Source: Spirochaetia bacterium
Lineage (GTDB): Bacteria > Spirochaetota > Spirochaetia > DSM-27196 > DATKUC01
Length of the DNA stretch: 64,000 nt
Reading direction: 5' to 3'
Assembly: GCA_035530755.1 (NCBI GenBank)
Contig: DATKUF010000036.1
Coordinates: forward strand, 14,354-78,353
Shown: positions 35,662 to 64,000 of the stretch, one piece after another
Layout of the letters: each line of letters opens with the position of its first letter
Position numbering within the stretch: the first letter of the stretch is position 1
Translations under genes and position numbers: made by a program
Notes under the pieces: generated by a model
What the model saw: only the letters and a program-made list of their open reading frames with translations
Told to the model about the DNA's origin: nothing
Database searches by the model: none

Positions 35662-35733
35662 GGGCGATTAACTCAGCGGGAGAGTGCTTCCCTCACACGG
35701 AAGAAGTCAGCAGTTCAAATCTGCTATCGCCCA
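35662..35733 (+). tRNA. tRNA-Val (anticodon CAC)
   Basis: Hand-folded cloverleaf of 72 nt. Acceptor GGGCGAT/ATCGCCC; D-arm ACTC-AGCGGGA-GAGT; anticodon arm CTTCC-CTCACAC-GGAAG; variable AAGTC; T-arm AGCAG-TTCAAAT-CTGCT; discriminator A. CCA is not encoded. Confidence 0.9.
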
Positions 35734-35897
35734 CAAAGGCCACCGGCCGAGCACCCGCCTGAACGCGTCTTCGGTTCCCGTAACTGTTACTCACACAGAT
35801 ACTTACTTCCGCTCTATATCCAATCTTCGTCACAGCAATTATAGTTGAATCCGCAGGGGCTGTCGGTTTGATGCGCAGTTCCGGGGGAGGCCGAAAC

Positions 35898-55483: not shown

Positions 55484-56779
55484 ATGTCCAGATCGGGAAA
55501 ATGGGTTGCATTCGCAATCTTCGCATTTGCTGCGGTCTCGGTTGCGATGGCGGGAGGCAAACAGGAGCCTGCCATGCAAAAGCCGGTATCAATTCAATTT
55601 GCTATTTCTCCTCGGGAGGTCGGAAAGGTAATACCCGATTACATTTCCGGATTCGAGAAAGAAAATCCAAACATCAAGGTCGACTGGCTGCAGGTTCCCG
55701 GCGTACCCGACGAGCAGCACACGCTCTACGTCACCAATATGGCGTCTCAGGCGGATAAGCCCGATGTGCTCGCGGTCGATGTGATCTGGCCCGGCGAGTT
55801 CATCGCGAACGGATGGGCGGCGCCGATCAACGATTCCTTCTCCTCGTCTGAGCTCAGCCAGTACCTGCCGGGAATGATGAACTCGGTAACTGTGGACGGT
55901 AAAGCCTACGGTGTGCCGCTCTACACCAACGCCATTCACCTTTTTTACCGGAAGGATCTCCTGGACAAATACGGACTGAGCGTACCAAAAACCTGGGAGG
56001 AACTGGCGTCTACCGCAAAAGAGATTGTACAAAAAGAGAACAATCCTGACCTCGTGGGTTACATCAGCATGTGGGCGCAAATCGAAGGATTGTTCATGAA
56101 CTACCTTCAATTCTTCTGGGGAGCGGGCGGCCACTTCTTCGACAACGCAGGCAAAGCCTCGATCGACACGCCGGCCGGCGTCAAGGCGCTCAAGACGATG
56201 GTCGGATTCGTGAAGGACGGACTTGCCCCGCAGAGCATCATCACCTACAAACCCAACGACGCGATGGCGCTGTTCCGGCAGGGCAGGGCAGTATTCATGG
56301 TCGTCCAGGATTTTGTTTGGCCGATGCTGAACGCCGCCGACTCGCCGGTCAACGGAAAAGTTGGAATGACACGCGTACCCTATTTCGCCGGACACCCGGA
56401 TGCAAGCACTGTTTGCATGGGGGGCTGGATTCTCATCGTGAATCCCTACTCCACTCACAAGGCCGAGGCGGCCAGGTTCATAAAATACATAACCTCCGAG
56501 AAGGCCGGTCTCGAGATGGCTGTCCAGACAGGCAGTATGCCTGCCCGCAACGGAATGGACGCCAACGCCCAGCTGCTCCAGCAGTATCCGATAGCCAAGC
56601 AACTTTACGCCGATTTCGCGGTCGGTGACGTTCGGCCGTCGGCTCAGGCCGGGGCCAGGTATCCGGAGCTCTCGCATGAGATGCAGCTGGAGATCCACTC
56701 CGCGCTTGCCGGGGAGAAGACCCCGGAGCAGGCTCTGGCAGACGCCCAGAAGAACGTGACGAAAATTCTGGGAAAGTAG
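55484..56779 (+). CDS. Extracellular solute-binding protein family 1 (CUT1 sugar ABC)
   Basis: Signal KWVAFAIFAFAAVSVAMAGG. Typical SBP_bac_1 blocks: PDVLAVDVIWPGEF, VDGKAYGVPLYTNAIHLFYRKD, GGWILIVNPYS. Confidence 0.85.
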   Translation: MSRSGKWVAFAIFAFAAVSVAMAGGKQEPAMQKPVSIQFAISPREVGKVIPDYISGFEKENPNIKVDWLQVPGVPDEQHTLYVTNMASQADKPDVLAVDVIWPGEFIANGWAAPINDSFSSSELSQYLPGMMNSVTVDGKAYGVPLYTNAIHLFYRKDLLDKYGLSVPKTWEELASTAKEIVQKENNPDLVGYISMWAQIEGLFMNYLQFFWGAGGHFFDNAGKASIDTPAGVKALKTMVGFVKDGLAPQSIITYKPNDAMALFRQGRAVFMVVQDFVWPMLNAADSPVNGKVGMTRVPYFAGHPDASTVCMGGWILIVNPYSTHKAEAARFIKYITSEKAGLEMAVQTGSMPARNGMDANAQLLQQYPIAKQLYADFAVGDVRPSAQAGARYPELSHEMQLEIHSALAGEKTPEQALADAQKNVTKILGK

Positions 56780-56864
56780 ACTCGAAGGATAGGACTCGGT
56801 GTGACATCGGGGCGTGCCGGCAAAGCGTCCGGGCGCCCCTTCCGCCGATCTCAAGTGAGCGGTT

Positions 56865-57749
56865 ATGGTCCAAAGAAAGCTGAACGACTCTACCTACGGC
56901 CTGCTCCTCGTTGCGCCGGTGTTCATAATCGTAGTCGGGATCCTCTTTCTCCCGACTCTCTACACCATCGGGTTAAGCCTTTCTAATTTTTCGTTCCTGA
57001 AAGGGCACACACTCCGTTTTGTAGGATTCACCAATTTCGTTTCGATATTTTCCGATTCCGAGTTCGTTTCGTCCCTCGCCAACACCGTAGTGTTTACCGT
57101 GGTAACGGTCTTTCTAGAGCTTTCAATAGGGCTGGTACTCGCGTTGATCCTGAACCGAAGCTTTGCTTTCATGGGGCTCCTGCGAACCACAATTCTATTC
57201 CCGTGGGCGCTTCCCACAGCGCTGAACGCGATCATCTGGAGATGGTTGTTCAATCCGGATTTCGGATTCTTCAATACTATTCTTATCCAGCTGGGTCTCA
57301 CGAGCGTGAAGACCAACTGGCTCGGCGAGATTCCCCTCAGTATGTACAGCATGATGACCGTTGCTATCTGGAAAACGAGCTCGTTCATGGCGCTGATTCT
57401 CCTTACGGGCCTCCAGACTATACCGGGGGACCTGTATGAAGCCGCGGAGATCGACGGTGCAGGATGGTTCTCGCGATTGCGGAAGATCACCCTGCCCCTG
57501 TTGGTCCCTTCGATTCTTCTTGCGCTGCTATTCCGCTCGATGGACGCGTTTCGAGCCTTTGAGCTGCCGTTTGCGCTGACCGAAGGCGGGCCTGCCGGTT
57601 CGACGCAGACGCTCAGCCTCTTCGGCTACCGGCAGTTCTTCCAGTTCCTGAAATTCGACACGGGTTCCGCGGTGTCGGTGGTACAGTTTGTTCTTATCCT
57701 GCTTCTTGGAACCTTCTATCTTCGAATATTCCGCACGGAGAACGAATGA
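56865..57749 (+). CDS. Sugar ABC permease (MalF/BPD_transp_1 type)
   Basis: Six TM helices and an EAA loop (YEAAEIDGAGWFSRLRKITLPLLVP). Confidence 0.9.
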   Translation: MVQRKLNDSTYGLLLVAPVFIIVVGILFLPTLYTIGLSLSNFSFLKGHTLRFVGFTNFVSIFSDSEFVSSLANTVVFTVVTVFLELSIGLVLALILNRSFAFMGLLRTTILFPWALPTALNAIIWRWLFNPDFGFFNTILIQLGLTSVKTNWLGEIPLSMYSMMTVAIWKTSSFMALILLTGLQTIPGDLYEAAEIDGAGWFSRLRKITLPLLVPSILLALLFRSMDAFRAFELPFALTEGGPAGSTQTLSLFGYRQFFQFLKFDTGSAVSVVQFVLILLLGTFYLRIFRTENE

Positions 57750-58588
57750 TGCAGGCAAATCTTTTCGGACGCGTGATCAGTCTCATTGCTAAGTATCTGT
57801 TCGTTCTATTCTTAGTCGTTCTGTTCTTCTTTCCCGTCGCCTGGATCCTGTTGACGTCGATCAAGACGACAGGCGACATCTACGCGTGGCCGCCGGTCTA
57901 CATACCGGCTCATCCAACGCTGCAGAACTACCACACGGTGCTGTTCGGATCAAAATTGGGGCGCTACATCCTGAACTCGGTGATTGTGTCCTCGTTGTCG
58001 ACGCTATCCGTGCTCTTTTTCGCGTCCCTCGCCGGGTACAGCATCGCGCGGATACGTTTCCGAGGCCGCCATCTGCTTCTGATGTTTTTCCTTTCGATGT
58101 CGATGTTTCCGCAGCTGGCAATCGTTCCCTCACTTTTTATCTGGTTTCGTCAAATCGGGCTCATCAACAGTTTCATGGGAATCGTTCTTGCCTATACCGG
58201 TCTGTTCTCACCGCTCGCCCTGTGGATTCTCGCGACCTATTTTCGGACTATTCCCCTTGAAATTGAAGAATCCGCCAAACTCGACGGTTGCAGCCGCCTA
58301 CGGATTCTCTGGTCGATCCTCATGCCCCTTTCGATCCCCGGTGTAATTGCGGCCTCGCTGATTGTGTTCATCCAGACCTGGAATGAGTTCTTCCTCGCGC
58401 TTGTCATTCTTTCGAAGAATCTGCTGCGGACGGCAACAGTCGGAATTGCGCTCTACCCGGGGGAGTACGCATTCCCCTGGGAGCTCATTACGACCGCGAC
58501 CTTTCTCGCCATCGTGCCGATCTTCGCACTTACCGCGGTTTTCCAGAAACAGATCATTGGCGGTCTGACCGCAGGCTCGTTGAAGTGA
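57746..58588 (+). CDS. Sugar ABC permease (MalG type)
   Basis: EAA loop EESAKLDGCSRLRILWSILMPLSIP. The ATG overlaps the upstream stop (ATGA). Confidence 0.9.
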   Translation: MMQANLFGRVISLIAKYLFVLFLVVLFFFPVAWILLTSIKTTGDIYAWPPVYIPAHPTLQNYHTVLFGSKLGRYILNSVIVSSLSTLSVLFFASLAGYSIARIRFRGRHLLLMFFLSMSMFPQLAIVPSLFIWFRQIGLINSFMGIVLAYTGLFSPLALWILATYFRTIPLEIEESAKLDGCSRLRILWSILMPLSIPGVIAASLIVFIQTWNEFFLALVILSKNLLRTATVGIALYPGEYAFPWELITTATFLAIVPIFALTAVFQKQIIGGLTAGSLK

Positions 58589-58635: not shown

Positions 58636-59748
58636 ATGAATACTCTCTCTCAGCATGCCCGGGAGAAGCTGTCGGCTTTCGCGAGAGCTCTTGTCGATCA
58701 GAGTGCGGCGAAAGTCATCGTCCCCCCGCAGGAGTCCCGTGAAGGATTCTGGTTCGGAGCCGGAAACCTCTCCATCGGTCCGGATGGCGCGATGTACCTC
58801 ATCGGAAGATACAGGAACTTTGGTGACTCCCGGACCGGACTCGGCGCAGGAACACGCGGCCTCGAGCTCGCGATCTTCCGATCGACCGACCGTGGGAAGA
58901 GCTTCACAAAGATCGTGAGTTTTTCGAAATCCGGCTTGAACAACGGAAAGCGGGAAGTTGTATCGATAGAGGGGGCGAAACTCCTGTTCGGTGATGGCGG
59001 AGTAGAGCTTTTTGTCTCGACCGAAAAGAGGGGAATTGCCTATCCGGCCGGGCTCGAAGCTTTTCTGAAACCCGGAACCGGCGTGTGGACAATCGACCAC
59101 GCCCGCGCCGACTCAGTTGAGGGGCTCGCCGACGCGGCGATTGATCCGCTCATCGAGTGCAGCGATCCCCGGTGGCTTCACGTAAAGGATCCGGCAATTC
59201 ACCGAAGCCCGGGCGGCGAGACGGTGCTCTACTTCTGTACGCATCCGTTCAACTGGTCGAGCGCCAACACCGGAATGGCAGTGCGCCCGGCAGGCAGCGA
59301 CAGTTTCGGCGAGCCTGACTTCGAGCGGTTCCCCCGCGGATTCACCTGGGATGTTGCGGCAAGCAGGGTGACCGGCATGGTTCCGGTTCCGCCGGTCGGT
59401 GCGTTCGCAGACCGGCGACAAATCTTCATACTCTTTTACGACGGAGCGGAGTCTCTTCGGAAATACGATGAACATCCGTCCGCAGTCAGCCGGCCGAGAG
59501 GATACTCATGCGAGGAGCTCGGTGGCGCTGCGTTCAGCGACGAAGGACTCATCGGCCCGATCGAACGGCTCTCGCAGACACTCCCGTACTTCGTGAGTCC
59601 GCATGGAACGGGCTGCAGCCGGTATGTCGATGTGCTCGAGACCGAAGAGGGTTACTACGCGAGCTGGCAGCAGTCGCAGCCTGACCGCTCGCAGCCGCTT
59701 GTCCTCAACTTCGTCCCGCGAGCGGACGTGGAACGCATTCTTCGATAG
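58636..59748 (+). CDS. Hypothetical protein with a BNR/Asp-box-like motif; possible beta-propeller glycosidase of the sugar operon
   Basis: There is no signal peptide. RSTDRGKSF fits the Asp-box pattern S-x-D-x-G-x-[ST]-[WF]. The rest is beta-rich, and it is the last gene of the ROK-regulated CUT1 operon. Family not recognised by eye. Confidence 0.4.
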   Translation: MNTLSQHAREKLSAFARALVDQSAAKVIVPPQESREGFWFGAGNLSIGPDGAMYLIGRYRNFGDSRTGLGAGTRGLELAIFRSTDRGKSFTKIVSFSKSGLNNGKREVVSIEGAKLLFGDGGVELFVSTEKRGIAYPAGLEAFLKPGTGVWTIDHARADSVEGLADAAIDPLIECSDPRWLHVKDPAIHRSPGGETVLYFCTHPFNWSSANTGMAVRPAGSDSFGEPDFERFPRGFTWDVAASRVTGMVPVPPVGAFADRRQIFILFYDGAESLRKYDEHPSAVSRPRGYSCEELGGAAFSDEGLIGPIERLSQTLPYFVSPHGTGCSRYVDVLETEEGYYASWQQSQPDRSQPLVLNFVPRADVERILR

Positions 59749-59758
59749 GGCCTCGCGG

Positions 59759-60784
59759 CTATGGCTGTTGCGCCAGCGGGTTCACGATGCTTTCCGCCGC
59801 ATAGACGGACGGAATCAGACCCATTGCCGTCATCGTTCTGATCGACTCCTGATAGCGGGCAGTGTCAATGTACCCGTAGCCTTTGGGCGAATTCCAGAGG
59901 TCCGCCGTCGTGCGCAGAGCGCTGGTGAGAAAGGGTCTCTGGCTCTCGTTGGCGCCGTTGATGTATTTCATCGCTATTGTGACCGATTCGTCTATATGGC
60001 CTGCAGTGTATTCCATCGCCCTTTTCGTCGCCTCGAAAAAACGTTCGAGGACATCGGCGCGGTTTTTGAGATCCGCCTTGGAGCTGATAAACGACGAGCT
60101 CACGAGGTTCGAGAAATTCATGACGTCCCATGCGTTGATGGGCACATTCATCTGCCGGAGCTTCACCGGCTCGTTCGTCACGAAAACGACGGCGCCCGCA
60201 ATTTTGTCGCTGAGCAGAGCCGGAATCTGCGTATAACCGATCTTTTCGACTTTGACTTTGTCCTTGAGATTGTAGTGTTCGAGGAAGAGCTGAAGCCCGA
60301 TATAGCTCGTGCCGAACAGCTCGGGAACTCCAATGGTTTTTCCGGCAAAATCCGCCGGAGTGTCCACCACGCCTTTCCTGGCTACAATTGTCACCGGATA
60401 TCGCTCGTAGTACTGAAAGGCCGCGGCGAGCGCAAGTCCCTTCGATCCGGCGATTATGAGCTGATCCGAGTCGGCAAGCCCGACATCGATCTTCCCTGCA
60501 AGAAGCAGCGAGTAGATGTCCATGCCGAATCCGTACTCAATCTTCAGATCAACGCCAGCGTCCCGGTAGTAGCCCTTTTCAATTCCGACGTACAACGGCG
60601 TAAACTGGATATTGGGGATGTAGGCGATTGCAAGCTTTACCGGATCGAGCTGCTGCGCGTGCGCCAGCGGTAAGGCTGCCGTCATGAGTAGAAGCACAAG
60701 TCCGGTCATTCGCGACGCACCGCCGCGCGGCCGCGTGATCCACTTAATGAATGCCGTGAAGGTCTCCCGCATCTGTTCTCTCAT
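59759..60784 (-). CDS. ABC substrate-binding protein, NMT1/THI5-like (ThiY/RibY-like)
   Basis: Start moved to ATG 60784, 2 nt after the stop of the upstream gene. Signal MTGLVLLLMTAALPLAHA. Blocks: LKIEYGFGMDIYSLLLAGKIDVGLADSDQLIIAGSKG and GKTIGVPELFGTSYIGLQLFL. Confidence 0.8.
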   Translation of the reverse strand: MREQMRETFTAFIKWITRPRGGASRMTGLVLLLMTAALPLAHAQQLDPVKLAIAYIPNIQFTPLYVGIEKGYYRDAGVDLKIEYGFGMDIYSLLLAGKIDVGLADSDQLIIAGSKGLALAAAFQYYERYPVTIVARKGVVDTPADFAGKTIGVPELFGTSYIGLQLFLEHYNLKDKVKVEKIGYTQIPALLSDKIAGAVVFVTNEPVKLRQMNVPINAWDVMNFSNLVSSSFISSKADLKNRADVLERFFEATKRAMEYTAGHIDESVTIAMKYINGANESQRPFLTSALRTTADLWNSPKGYGYIDTARYQESIRTMTAMGLIPSVYAAESIVNPLAQQP

Positions 60785-60786
60785 AT

Positions 60787-62367
60787 CTATCTCCTTGAAC
60801 CTGATTTTCTCTTTGCCTGAATGAGCGCATAAAGTCCGCTTGCGATACCAAAATAGAAGAGCCCGAGGAAACCGAGCCACAAAAGCCCGACGAACATCAG
60901 CTCCATGTCGAAATTCGCCTTCGCCAGATTCACGAGTGCACCAAGCCCATCCTGTCCGGATACGAACTCGCCGACGACCGCGCCGATAACCGACAGAGTA
61001 ATCGAGACCTTGATCCCGCTGAAAATGACCGGGAGTGCCGCCGGAAGCTCGAACCTGGTGAATGCACGCCTGCGCGTCGGTCTGTAGAAGCGTACAAGCG
61101 TGCGCACCCGCTCCTCCGCCAGGTGAATGGCCGAAATGTTGTTGATGAGCATCGGAAAGAACATGAGAATGACGGCGGTTGTTACCTTCGGCGCGAAACC
61201 GAACCCGAACCAGAGCACCAGGAAAGGTGCGAGCGCTACGGCGGGGATAGTGTTCAGCGCGATAAGATGAGGCATCATGAGATTGGAGGCGACTTTAGAT
61301 TTTGCTATTGCATATCCGAGAACCAGCGTAAGGACAAAGGCGATCAGGAATCCGGTCGCCGATTCGTAGACAGTGGCCGCGAGGTTCGGGAGGATCGACC
61401 CGTCAAGCAGCGTCGATACGAAACGGGTGATTATGGCCGCAGGCGCGGGAAAAATGTAGTCGGGGACCTTGAACCGGCTTTTCACGAATGAGAGAAGCAG
61501 AAAGATGACGACGGCTTCTACCGGGATGAGCCAGCGATTGTAGTTTCTCTTGAAACTGCCGAGTAGTTTCGCTGCGATTCCGGTCGGCGGTTTCACGGTC
61601 TGAAGCTCGACCGCGGGTTCAGGCCGCGTGCTCCACAGTGCCTTGGCCTCTGCCCGGATCGACCTGTCCACACGTGATTCCGCATCGGTCAGCGAAAATT
61701 GTTCTCTGCTCTCCTGTCCGTTACGTTCAATGCGCTCAGTTTTGATGATTCCCGCAGGTTTGTTTGATAGCACGTAAACCGTGTCTGAAAGAAAGCAGGC
61801 CTCCTCGACCGAGTGCGTAACCATGACAACCGTCTGGTCTGCCCGCGAGTGGATATTCTTGATGAGGATGTTCAATCGTTCCCGGCTTATTATGTCGAGA
61901 GAGGAGAATGGCTCATCGAGCACCAGCAATTCCGGACGTGTTACCAGCGCCCGAGCGATCTCGACGCGCTTCTTCATCCCCCCGGATAGCTCATTCGGGA
62001 ACAGGTGTTCGTAACCTTCGAGGCCGACGGTCTCCAGGATGTGAAGCGCGCGTTTACGGATCTCTTCGGTTACCGGGATTCCGCGAGACTCAAACGGGAG
62101 AAGCACATTCGACAATGCATCGCGCCATTCCAGCAGCGAATCATGCTGAAACACGAATGATGTGTTGGCAGTCGAGACTTCCACGGATCCCTCAAAATGG
62201 CGATGCATCCCGAGCAGAATATAGAGCAGCGTCGTTTTACCGCAACCGGAGGGGCCGACGAATGAGACGAACTGATTCTGGCGTACATCGAAGGAAATGT
62301 CCCGAAGCACGGGATTTGCAAAAGCAAAATTCAGATTTTGGACGTGAATGAGCGTTGCATCATCCAT
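60787..62367 (-). CDS. Fused ABC ATPase (N-terminal) and NitT/TauT-type permease (C-terminal)
   Basis: N-terminal half: GPSGCGKTTLL, LSGGMKKRVEIARAL, LVLDEPFSSLD, VTHSVEEA. C-terminal half: six TM helices with an EAA-like loop (LVRFYRPTRRRAFTRFELPAALP). Single 526-aa ORF. Confidence 0.9.
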   Translation of the reverse strand: MDDATLIHVQNLNFAFANPVLRDISFDVRQNQFVSFVGPSGCGKTTLLYILLGMHRHFEGSVEVSTANTSFVFQHDSLLEWRDALSNVLLPFESRGIPVTEEIRKRALHILETVGLEGYEHLFPNELSGGMKKRVEIARALVTRPELLVLDEPFSSLDIISRERLNILIKNIHSRADQTVVMVTHSVEEACFLSDTVYVLSNKPAGIIKTERIERNGQESREQFSLTDAESRVDRSIRAEAKALWSTRPEPAVELQTVKPPTGIAAKLLGSFKRNYNRWLIPVEAVVIFLLLSFVKSRFKVPDYIFPAPAAIITRFVSTLLDGSILPNLAATVYESATGFLIAFVLTLVLGYAIAKSKVASNLMMPHLIALNTIPAVALAPFLVLWFGFGFAPKVTTAVILMFFPMLINNISAIHLAEERVRTLVRFYRPTRRRAFTRFELPAALPVIFSGIKVSITLSVIGAVVGEFVSGQDGLGALVNLAKANFDMELMFVGLLWLGFLGLFYFGIASGLYALIQAKRKSGSRR

Positions 62368-62375
62368 TCGATAGA

Positions 62376-62395
62376 CTCCGCGCTTCTTCGCGGAG
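62376..62395 (-). promoter_or_regulatory. Shine-Dalgarno-sequestering hairpin (expression platform of the FMN riboswitch)
   Basis: The minus strand reads CTCCGCG-AAGAAG-CGCGGAG. The 3' arm contains the GGAG Shine-Dalgarno sequence, 9 nt before the ATG at 62367. Confidence 0.4.
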
Positions 62396-62466
62396 AGAGT
62401 GTGGGAGAGTGAAGGTCAAGAAAGGATCTCAATAGATAGACTACTATCGACAAGATAACCTTTCTC

Positions 62467-62585
62467 TCTTCTCCCATCCAGACTCTCACTGTCGGCAACG
62501 GAATCTCACCGTTTCCCCCGCTGGCATGGCTGCCACCGGATTGCGGACTATAACCGCCGGTCGGGATTTCTCCCTCCCTCGAAGA
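62467..62585 (-). promoter_or_regulatory. FMN riboswitch (RFN element) aptamer
   Basis: The minus strand reads TCTTCGAGGGAGGGAGAAATCCCGACCGGCGGTTATAGTCCGCAATCCGG ... GGGGGAAACGGTGAGATTCCGTTGCCGACAGTGAGAGTCTGGATGGGAGAAGA. This matches the invariant RFN cores (GGG.GAAA.TCCCGACCGGCGGT..AGTCCGC and GGTGA.ATTCC...GCCGACAGT.A.AGTCTGGATGGGAGAAG). P1 closes as TCTTC/GAAGA. Confidence 0.9.
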
Positions 62586-62603
62586 AAAAAGGTTGTTCTA
62601 GCA

Positions 62604-62632
62604 TAGATACGATTTTCAACGTGATTAGTCAA
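62604..62632 (-). promoter_or_regulatory. Candidate sigma70 promoter driving the riboswitch-controlled operon
   Basis: The minus strand reads TTGACT (62632-62627), a 17-nt spacer, then TATCTA (62609-62604), about 20 nt upstream of the aptamer. Confidence 0.45.
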
Positions 62633-62816
62633 GTGAGATTCCGCAACTTGCCGTTTCGGTTGCCGCGTAGGTATTATTGTCGCGTGCTGACCTTCACCGG
62701 AAGCTCCTGATGCACAACTGCCTCTTTTTTGCTGACGCGGCTCTCGCTGCGTCCGGTGTCATTTCGGCTTTCACGCCCTCGACATACAATTCTACTTCAC
62801 CAGAAAGGAACACCTT

Positions 62817-64000
62817 ATGACCAATCGTTCACGCGCGACTGTTGCGATTCTTCTCGCCGTTGCACTCGTCTCGCTCGCCGGATGCACCTCTCAAAGCGCC
62901 GCGATCGCACCGACCGGAAGTGCTGTCGATGTCGTTCGCACGACCCTCGACAACGGGCTGCGGGTAGTCGTTGTTCGGGACCCGCTTGCTCCGGTCGTCA
63001 CACAGCAGATCACCTACTTTGCCGGATCGAAAGAATCGCCCGCGGGTTTTCCGGGGACGGCCCACGCTCAGGAGCACATGATGTTCCGCGGTGCGTCCGG
63101 ATTGAGCGGGGACCAGCTGTCTCAGATCTCCGCCCAGCTTGGTGGGAACATGGACGCTTTCACTACAGAAGATACAACGAGCTACTACTTCACCGTGCCG
63201 GCTTCCGATCTCGACGTCACGCTCAAAATCGGCGCGATCCGCATGTCGAGTGTGGACGACAGGCAGTCCGACTGGGAGAAAGAGCGCGGTGCGATAGAGC
63301 AGGAGGTGGCCCGGGACAACTCGAACCCGCTCTACGTCCTGGAATCGAAAGCGCAGGCCGCCGTTTTCGCCGGTACACCCTATGAGGACACCGGCCTCGG
63401 AACGAAACCGACCTTCGACAATACGAACGCGACGCTCCTCAAGAGCTTTTACGATAGCTGGTACGCCCCGAACAACGCTCTCCTGGTTGTGGCCGGCGAC
63501 GTCGACCCCGCAAAGGTTACCTCGAAGATCCGGGAGCTGTACGGATCGATTCCAAAACGGAATCTTCCCGCACGTCCTGCGTTCAATCTGAAACCTGTCG
63601 CGCCGCAGACTTTTTCGTCGACAACCGATCAGTCCTACGGCATTGTGGCATTTGTATTCCGCATGCCCGGGTATCAGAGTCCCGACTACGCGACGGCCCG
63701 GCTGATGGCGCGCGTGCTCGACTCTCAGCGCGGCGCGCTCACCGAGCTCGCCTATCAGGGCAAGACACTCAATTCCGGATTCAGCTATCAGGCGATGGTG
63801 AGGGGCGGCTACGCCTACGCGTGGGCGGCATTTCCGGCGGGCACCGACCCGAAAAAGATCGAGACTGAGGTCCGCGATGCGGTCGAGAAGTCAAAGGCAG
63901 GCGTGGCGCCCGATCTGATTGCGGCCGAGAGAAGCCGAGCCATTCTGGCAACCGAGCTTCAGAGTAATTCGGTTTCCGGGCTCGTGAACGCATGGACAAA
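62817..64000 (+). CDS. M16 (pitrilysin) family zinc peptidase lipoprotein, 3'-truncated by the window edge
   Basis: Not in the ORF track because there is no in-window stop. ATG 62817, frame 3, open to the edge. MTNRSRATVAILLAVALVSLAGCTS carries a lipobox. The inverted zinc motif HxxEH is in GTAHAQEHMMFRG, with RGAIEQEV downstream. Confidence 0.85.
   Translation, partial: MTNRSRATVAILLAVALVSLAGCTSQSAAIAPTGSAVDVVRTTLDNGLRVVVVRDPLAPVVTQQITYFAGSKESPAGFPGTAHAQEHMMFRGASGLSGDQLSQISAQLGGNMDAFTTEDTTSYYFTVPASDLDVTLKIGAIRMSSVDDRQSDWEKERGAIEQEVARDNSNPLYVLESKAQAAVFAGTPYEDTGLGTKPTFDNTNATLLKSFYDSWYAPNNALLVVAGDVDPAKVTSKIRELYGSIPKRNLPARPAFNLKPVAPQTFSSTTDQSYGIVAFVFRMPGYQSPDYATARLMARVLDSQRGALTELAYQGKTLNSGFSYQAMVRGGYAYAWAAFPAGTDPKKIETEVRDAVEKSKAGVAPDLIAAERSRAILATELQSNSVSGLVNAWT

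Follow-up and report, generated by a model that had tools for sequence, protein, structure and literature searches.

A canonical FMN riboswitch and its predicted expression platform upstream of a RibXY-like operon in a Salinispira-like spirochaete

The operon, its promoter and the FMN aptamer

The window analysed here, a 64,000-nucleotide stretch of DNA from a Spirochaetia bacterium, contains an intergenic region of 449 bp (62368-62816) that separates a two-gene operon from a divergent M16 peptidase gene starting at 62817. An earlier sequence-only reading of this DNA had put the length of the divergent region at 450 bp, in agreement with this measurement. The operon and all leader elements described below lie on the minus strand. 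The first gene (60787-62367) encodes a single 526-aa protein in which an ABC ATPase (PF00005, aa 21-154) is fused to a BPD_transp_1 permease (PF00528, aa 348-510, 7.8e-22); by its Pfam and NCBIfam matches the protein is of the NitT/TauT type and resembles RibX with an ATPase of its own. The start codon taken from the list of open reading frames (ATG, 62365-62367) sits 37 codons before Walker A, the same as in relatives, and the N-terminus MDDATLIHV aligns with those of the orthologues. The stop of the fused gene is only 2 nt away from a RibY-like gene (59759-60784) for an NMT1/THI5-type periplasmic binding protein (PF09084, 8.3e-34) of about 341 aa counted from the ATG at 60784. The binding protein has its closest solved relative in ThiY, which binds a pyrimidine (3ix1, 4.9e-12).

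Homologues of the fused protein are numerous in Spirochaetia, with a top identity of 92%, and the best named one, from Salinispira pacifica, is 82% identical. Some of them (P0053, P0071) carry the JGI label 'putative riboflavin transport system permease protein', and in all orthologous loci that were examined the next gene after the fused one is an NMT1 gene. RibXY was described as a COG0600 permease and a COG0715 binding protein encoded behind an FMN riboswitch, and the RibXY system of the Chloroflexus species C. aurantiacus complemented an E. coli riboflavin auxotroph (PMC4418817). The same study took conservation of the FMN riboswitch upstream as its criterion for RibXY orthologues; here, a full match to the FMN riboswitch model RF00050 precedes the fused gene in 31 of the 32 orthologous loci with enough upstream sequence. 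The domain content, the FMN riboswitch and the JGI labels together suggest that the two-gene operon encodes a RibXY-like riboflavin importer. In 2015, only RfuABCD was listed for Spirochaetes, and an associated ATPase was noted in just a few Chloroflexi (PMC4418817). The present loci would extend the FMN-riboswitch-controlled importers of the RibXY type, here with a fused ATPase, to Spirochaetia.

The promoter TTGACT-17-TATCTA proposed in the sequence-only reading was found at 62632-62604, with the -35 hexamer TTGACT at 62627-62632 and the -10-like hexamer TATCTA, after a 17-nt spacer, at 62604-62609. From the end of TATCTA it is 14 nt to the Rfam match and 18 nt to the TCTTC of P1 described below. 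A consensus promoter scan did not call the operon promoter because its -10 is weak, agreeing with TATAAT at 3/6 positions and lacking the final T. Nevertheless, about 10 orthologous leaders keep TTGAC(T/A) and 'cgTAT' at a fixed spacing from the aptamer, and in them the -10 variants TATCTA, TATGTA, TATCAA and TATTCA each follow 'cg'. This conservation gives good phylogenetic support to the putative promoter, and transcription probably starts near 62597.

The whole window was compared with Rfam by cmscan at gathering thresholds. On the minus strand, 62590-62462 matched RF00050 with 97.0 bits (E 3.5e-21), well clear of the gathering score of 66.2 bits, and the match was not truncated, spanning positions 1-138 of the 138 in the model. 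The aptamer lies on the same strand as the RibXY-like operon, 94 nt upstream of it. Both halves of the RFN element that had been read in the reverse complement of 62467-62585 are present there, and the P1 core closes as TCTTC (62585-62581) with GAAGA (62471-62467), also as read before; in the Rfam structure P1 has 8 bp, UUUUCUUC/GAAGAGAG, including two G.U pairs. The consensus core is largely intact, as 60/66 highly conserved (upper-case) positions of RF00050 are identical in the window aptamer, and the 6 departures include a J1/2 variant, GAGGGAGGG, that is found throughout the clade.

Helices P1-P6 (62462-62590) were further supported by covariation. When the Rfam-derived structure of the window was laid over 24 distinct aptamers located before orthologous operons, 98.1% of the cells in P1-P6 were paired, and compensatory changes on both sides occurred in 13/28 aptamer pairs. 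None of 500 shuffles was as good, and slid controls were only 41-63% paired. P6 and the base of P2 are invariant across the 24 aptamers and thus uninformative for covariation. Because the RF00050 match is full-length and no shuffle equalled the covariation, we regard the aptamer assignment as secure, and 62590-62462 as confirmed to be a genuine, canonical FMN (vitamin B2) riboswitch.

The riboswitch is an ordinary one. Riboswitch annotation is routine in Rfam-based pipelines such as NCBI PGAP, and standard annotation with Rfam would detect this element. The claim of the sequence-only reading that no annotation track would reveal the element is wrong, since a default Rfam scan at gathering thresholds finds the aptamer at once. 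Its presence would mark the operon as a flavin-responsive riboflavin importer, which has little importance beyond annotation. Apart from RF00050, the whole-window scan returned one tRNA and nothing else.

Orthologous loci and lineage-specific platforms

Orthologous loci were gathered by exact-protein look-ups, from a genome-contig match (L001) and by a metagenome scan with the permease half of the fused protein. A scan of genome contigs with the alignment of the whole protein picked up generic ABC motifs and gave mostly unrelated ATPases; the orthologues it contained were only L001 and L002. No FMN element was found at five more distant fused homologues with 38-44% identity (L003, L004, L005, L010 and L016).

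The expression platform behind the aptamer varies by lineage, and we observed the SD inside P1, an intrinsic terminator or a linker similar to that of the window. In L090, L091, L104, L106 and L107, the 3' strand of P1, GGGAGAAGGAAGGA, is the SD itself and lies 3 nt before the ATG, and in L109 and L112 the aptamer extends at its end into the ATG. The SD-in-P1 orthologues are unambiguously translational in design and show that control at translation initiation is common in this operon family. The KSB3 locus (L089 = L103) has two classic intrinsic terminators after the aptamer, and a U-run is present at L110 (= L113). For the window, no terminator-like site was found on the minus strand between the aptamer and the ATG (62368-62461), as the sequence-only reading had said in noting no U-tract terminator. 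The comparative set illustrates how one aptamer-operon pair can swap platforms among an SD in P1, a separate sequestor hairpin and intrinsic terminators.

Window-like leaders have a linker of 80-125 nt, in which a hairpin that we call H1 is followed by a pyrimidine tract and then by the RBS. H1 (62418-62466 in the window) consists of an outer helix, GAGAAAGG/CCUUUCUU, that encloses AUCUUG/UGAGAU and GAUAG/CUAUC, with a 5' arm that shares nucleotides with the outer end of P1. Every window-like leader was predicted to form H1 when folded freely. A MAFFT alignment of nine window-like platforms (A2) was out of register around CCUUUCUU; pair counts for the platform were therefore limited to a five-sequence, Salinispira-like sub-clade (alignment A3) composed of the window, L081, L082, L092 and L116. 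In this sub-clade the outer 8 bp of H1 are invariant, and one inner pair is altered on both sides. The inner sequence of H1 is different in L086 and L100, with the pairing retained.

The SD hairpin and the predicted folds of the leader

The SD of the fused gene lies in a 7-bp hairpin (62376-62395, -11.9 kcal/mol) formed by CTCCGCG (62395-62389), a loop of AAGAAG (62388-62383) and CGCGGAG (62382-62376). The sequence-only reading had described this hairpin as burying GGAG 9 nt before the ATG; the hairpin is present, and the spacer between GGAG (62379-62376) and the ATG (62367) is 8 nt, not 9. A perfect stem of at least 7 bp covering the SD appeared by chance in only 19/20,000 shuffles of the linker. 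The stem is kept in L081, L082, L092 and L116, with no change in the 3' arm and with loops that vary across the sub-clade (AAGAAG, AAGAGC, AGGAUA and ACGCUA). In the 5' arm, two C-G pairs have become U.G and one disruptive A.C occurs in L092. These changes are one-sided only among the five sequences, and the covariation of the hairpin in the sub-clade appears supportive but thin. The hairpin that pairs with the SD is statistically unusual and conserved, and its existence is supported on both counts. In the predicted folds, the probability of the SD being unpaired was 0.01 with the aptamer enforced and 0.14 on average in the free ensemble, and that of its two central G's was about 0 even in the free ensemble.

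The leader (266 nt) was predicted to fold at -98.9 kcal/mol when left free, compared with -75.4 kcal/mol when the Rfam aptamer was enforced. The free fold unzips P1, J6/1 and P6 and pairs 62487-62459, the 3' half of the aptamer, with 62425-62395. The anti-aptamer helices are arranged around H1 and comprise GAGAGU/ACUCUC, UGG/CCA, GGG/CUC, GAAG/CUUC and GAGAAAGG/CCUUUCUU. As a duplex they amount to -25.8 kcal/mol in the window and to values between -21.5 and -33.5 kcal/mol across all 13 window-like leaders, and RNAalifold recovered the anti-aptamer helix for the sub-clade. The large energy excess of the free fold suggests that sensing would be kinetic and co-transcriptional, as for the ribB FMN riboswitch, which exerts both translational and Rho-dependent control (PMC11571811).

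The strand that invades the aptamer in this fold belongs to a pyrimidine-rich tract of 36 nt (62392-62427), among them 17 C and a single G. By its composition and its pairing in the free MFE structure, the tract is a candidate anti-P1/anti-aptamer strand and a possible Rho-loading site. Reading from 62427 to 62392, it contains the 3' arm of H1, a segment that we call tract 1 (62417-62400) and the start of tract 2. The complement of tract 1 is found at the 3' end of the aptamer (GAAG/GGG/UGG). The pyrimidine-rich tract is paired in the free fold and becomes single-stranded only once the aptamer is locked.

In the window, tract 1 (anti-P1) and tract 2 (anti-SD) are separate copies that overlap by one nucleotide, and thus the anti-P1 helix and the SD hairpin can coexist. 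A 6-bp SD hairpin persisted in the free fold for 7/8 choices of the 3' boundary. The sequence-only reading had expected P1 and a direct anti-sequestor pairing to be the alternative folds, which was not borne out, as the free fold uses the upstream tract 62425-62395 instead and retains the hairpin. In the single-tract relatives L087, L083 and L093, one and the same segment serves as anti-aptamer and as anti-SD.

Opening of the RBS was 3-4.5 kcal/mol cheaper in the free ensemble of the window than in the aptamer-locked ensemble, and the difference had the same sign in 12/13 leaders. The effect was not specific when the aptamers were replaced by dinucleotide-shuffled ones, 13/50 of which were as good or better for the window and 8/50 for L082; for the single-tract leaders L093 and L098 it was specific (0/50). 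Because RBS opening is unspecific and the SD hairpin persists in the free fold, we consider an anti-sequestor/sequestor switch only plausible for the window, by analogy with the sister lineages.

Several other pairings were considered and set aside. The 5' strand of P1, UUUCUUCG, can pair with CGAAGAAG, which covers the sequestor loop and the 5' arm; this pairing is the MFE at one 3' boundary and has -12.8 kcal/mol as a duplex. It was rejected as a conserved mechanism, as the loop of L116, ACGCUA, is unrelated. Pairing of UCGAUAG in H1 with CUAUCGA in the spacer between the SD and the ATG is unconserved in L082, L092 and L116 and was treated as chance. In L093, L083, L098, L092 and L116, the start region AUGGAUGA mimics GGAUGGGAGA of the aptamer, and one CCAU-containing tract might pair with either of them. 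In the window, the tract has a C.A mismatch with AUGGAUGA at the A of AUG; this candidate was likewise set aside, and the MDD/MDE N-terminus shared among the proteins may reflect simple common descent.

The regulated step and comparison with known systems

Taken as a whole, the following model seems probable to us, and we hold it with moderate confidence: a sigma-70-type promoter, the FMN aptamer, an anti-P1 helix and the SD hairpin would together provide FMN-dependent OFF control of a riboflavin importer. TTGACT-17-TATCTA would drive a leader of about 230 nt, the first 129 nt of which are the FMN aptamer. When FMN is bound, P1, J6/1 and P6 would be locked and the downstream pyrimidine tract would be left unpaired, while the RBS would be held in the 7-bp GC-rich hairpin (CUCCGCG/CGCGGAG), giving low initiation. 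When FMN is scarce, H1 would nucleate the anti-P1 helix, and the tract at 62425-62395 would invade the 3' half of the aptamer at 62487-62459. The three-part logic of P1, anti-P1 and a sequestering stem would be that of E. coli ribB, and we take a translational OFF design like that of ribB, perhaps combined with a Rho component, to be the most likely platform. FMN-dependent OFF control is the natural reading for a flavin importer. We infer that expression is repressed upon FMN binding, mainly through translation initiation, and that the RBS is more accessible in the anti-P1 state, although the energy models did not show this last effect specifically for the window sequence.

As the SD hairpin may form with and without FMN, regulation could instead act through the loading of Rho. 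The aptamer and the operon would be the same, and the main step would be Rho-dependent termination or mRNA decay, not SD occlusion: the hairpin would slow initiation with or without FMN, FMN would free 62427-62392 for Rho, and without FMN this tract would be buried and transcription would read through. The occurrence of the hairpin in free and locked ensembles alike and the unspecific effect on RBS opening are consistent with such a scheme, as is a C-rich and G-poor tract that only the locked aptamer leaves unpaired. For E. coli ribB, Rho utilization sites within the riboswitch were reported to become exposed upon FMN binding, along with greater accessibility of a linker region (PMC11571811). 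However, the pyrimidine richness of the tract is already explained by its pairing to the purine-rich 3' end of the aptamer, at 36 nt it is on the short side for a Rho utilization site, and the sister lineages have plainly translational designs or intrinsic terminators; control mainly through Rho or decay is possible in our view, though unlikely. To our knowledge, Rho-dependent control by a riboswitch has been shown for no spirochaete. It seems quite unlikely that in the sub-clade the pyrimidine strand acting as both anti-P1 and anti-SD in sister lineages has been duplicated, that the SD hairpin has thus been insulated from the aptamer and that control is exerted mainly via the C-rich tract, by Rho loading or decay, or via a start-codon helix, CCAUUC/GAAUGG, which was found in L092 and L116. 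If this were true, a spirochaete riboswitch would carry a constitutive 'sequestor' and have its real output at the transcript level. On a small scale, the locus could serve to test whether duplication of an anti-P1/anti-SD tract moves control from translation to Rho.

The sequence-only reading had assigned the switch to the 5' arm of the SD hairpin itself. In this scheme, CUCUCUCC (62399-62392) would pair with the 3' strand of P1, GGAG(A)AGAG, in the absence of FMN and release GGAG, and formation of P1 would return the arm to the SD. The complementarity to this J6/1-P1 strand is real, with 8 bp and one bulge and a duplex energy of -11.6 kcal/mol, near the -11.9 kcal/mol of the hairpin. The ensemble containing this pairing (-90.9 kcal/mol) is still more stable than the aptamer-locked one (-79.6 kcal/mol), and the anti-aptamer and anti-SD nucleotides are identical in L087, L083 and L093. 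The anti-sequestor role fared worse than the complementarity: forcing the pairing cost +12.5 kcal/mol relative to the free ensemble, because tract 1 gives a longer helix and lets the hairpin form. In addition, about 20 nt of better-matching sequence would have to be looped out, and L082, L092 and L116 differ in tract 2 (UUUUCUCU, AUUCCCUC), which weakens the register. A direct switch of this kind is highly unlikely for the window. That the aptamer is decayed or non-regulatory, or that it regulates something else because the transporter, like some RibXY homologues, carries a substrate other than a flavin, seems extremely improbable. Some RibXY homologues elsewhere are indeed found behind TPP, ykkC or T-box elements (PMC4418817), and ThiY, the closest solved relative of the binding protein, has a thiamine pyrimidine as its ligand. 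Against this, the covariance-model match has a high score over the full length of the model, the conserved core is intact, and the aptamer is kept with compensatory changes in 31/32 loci from several lineages, suggesting purifying selection on an FMN-sensing leader for this operon.

The ribB-like translational OFF design that we prefer can be set beside several known systems. The window leader is like E. coli ribB in that about 100 nt of linker without an intrinsic terminator follow the FMN aptamer, a predicted anti-P1 strand is set against P1, a sequestering stem lies on the RBS, and the alternative fold has a large thermodynamic excess (PMC11571811). Unlike ribB, the leader would control an importer and not a biosynthetic gene; its anti-P1 and anti-SD strands are separate tracts in tandem, and the predicted sequestering hairpin coexists with anti-P1. 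With RibXY of Chloroflexi and Actinobacteria the operon has in common an FMN riboswitch followed by co-transcribed genes for a COG0600-type permease and a COG0715/NMT1 binding protein (PMC4418817). It differs from those systems in that a single 526-aa polypeptide holds both the permease and its ATPase and in that the host is a Salinispira-like spirochaete. The aptamer family is the same as that of B. subtilis ribD and ypaA-type leaders, whose intrinsic-terminator design is used by the KSB3 orthologue; unlike them, the window has no GC-rich stem with a U-tract after the aptamer. With the SD-in-P1 sister loci the window shares the aptamer, the operon and, as far as its leader can be read, the translational logic, whereas in place of an SD within P1 it has a 94-nt linker and a separate hairpin.

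Genes and RNAs around the riboflavin-importer operon

When the whole window was scanned, the only Rfam or ARAGORN match besides the FMN riboswitch was a tRNA-Val with a CAC anticodon (35662-35734, + strand). On the same strand at 55484-58588, ORF translations gave a binding protein of 431 aa and two permeases of 294 and 280 aa, and these genes appear to form an operon for a sugar-type ABC importer.

Between this operon and the binding-protein gene of the riboflavin-importer operon lies a 370-aa ORF (58636-59748, + strand), convergent with the binding-protein gene and without a match in Pfam or NCBIfam. Three related loci (L082, 5675-6787; L116, 2755-3218; L117, 2745-3208) likewise have a convergent 370-aa gene at this place, again without a Pfam match, and the ORF is therefore a conserved neighbour. 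On the other side, the operon is divergent from an M16 peptidase gene (62817-63998, + strand; Peptidase_M16 and M16_C), whose product carries a lipoprotein-like signal (…LAGC). The scanner called only one promoter-like site in the intergenic region, TTGCCG-18-TATTAT (62648-62677, + strand), and it is oriented toward the peptidase gene.

Variation within the aptamer

At window positions 62570-62580, spanning J1/2 and the start of P2, the aptamer has GAGGGAGGG instead of the Rfam consensus aGGGCaGGG, and this variant is clade-wide, being common to most of the spirochaete orthologues. The aptamers of L085 (2772-2916; = L095) and L098 (314-459) carry an insertion of ~20 nt in the P2 loop, e.g., CAGGCCGAAUGAGCCUGG, which has hairpin-forming potential of its own. 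L111, with 49% identity to the permease half, is the sole orthologue-like locus in which no RF00050 match was found across the whole locus despite enough upstream sequence.

Alternative pairings of P1 and the start region

P1 can be extended to ~14 bp by pairing window 62591-62594 with 62456-62460 (AACCUUUUUUCUUC / GAAGAGAGAA(A)GGUU), and AAAGG therefore has two possible partners, the 5' extension or the CCUUU of the linker hairpin H1. In L085, the extended helix shows a compensatory change from U-A to C-G.

Window-like genes open with AUGGAUGA (MDD/MDE), which is similar to GGAUGGGAGA of the aptamer, as seen at window 62360-62367 and in the orthologous start regions. Five loci (L093, L083, L098, L092 and L116) have a tract with CCAU that is able to pair with either the start region or the aptamer GGAUGGGAGA. 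The explanation could be that the first codons are constrained at the RNA level, or it could simply be shared descent.

Expression platforms across lineages

Comparison of L090 (2862-3002), L091 (2858-2997), L104, L106, L107, L109, L112, L089 (2804-3000; = L103) and L110 (= L113) showed that one aptamer-operon pair is combined with three expression platforms depending on the lineage. In one the SD lies within the 3' strand of P1, in another a separate hairpin serves as the sequestor, and the third relies on intrinsic terminators.
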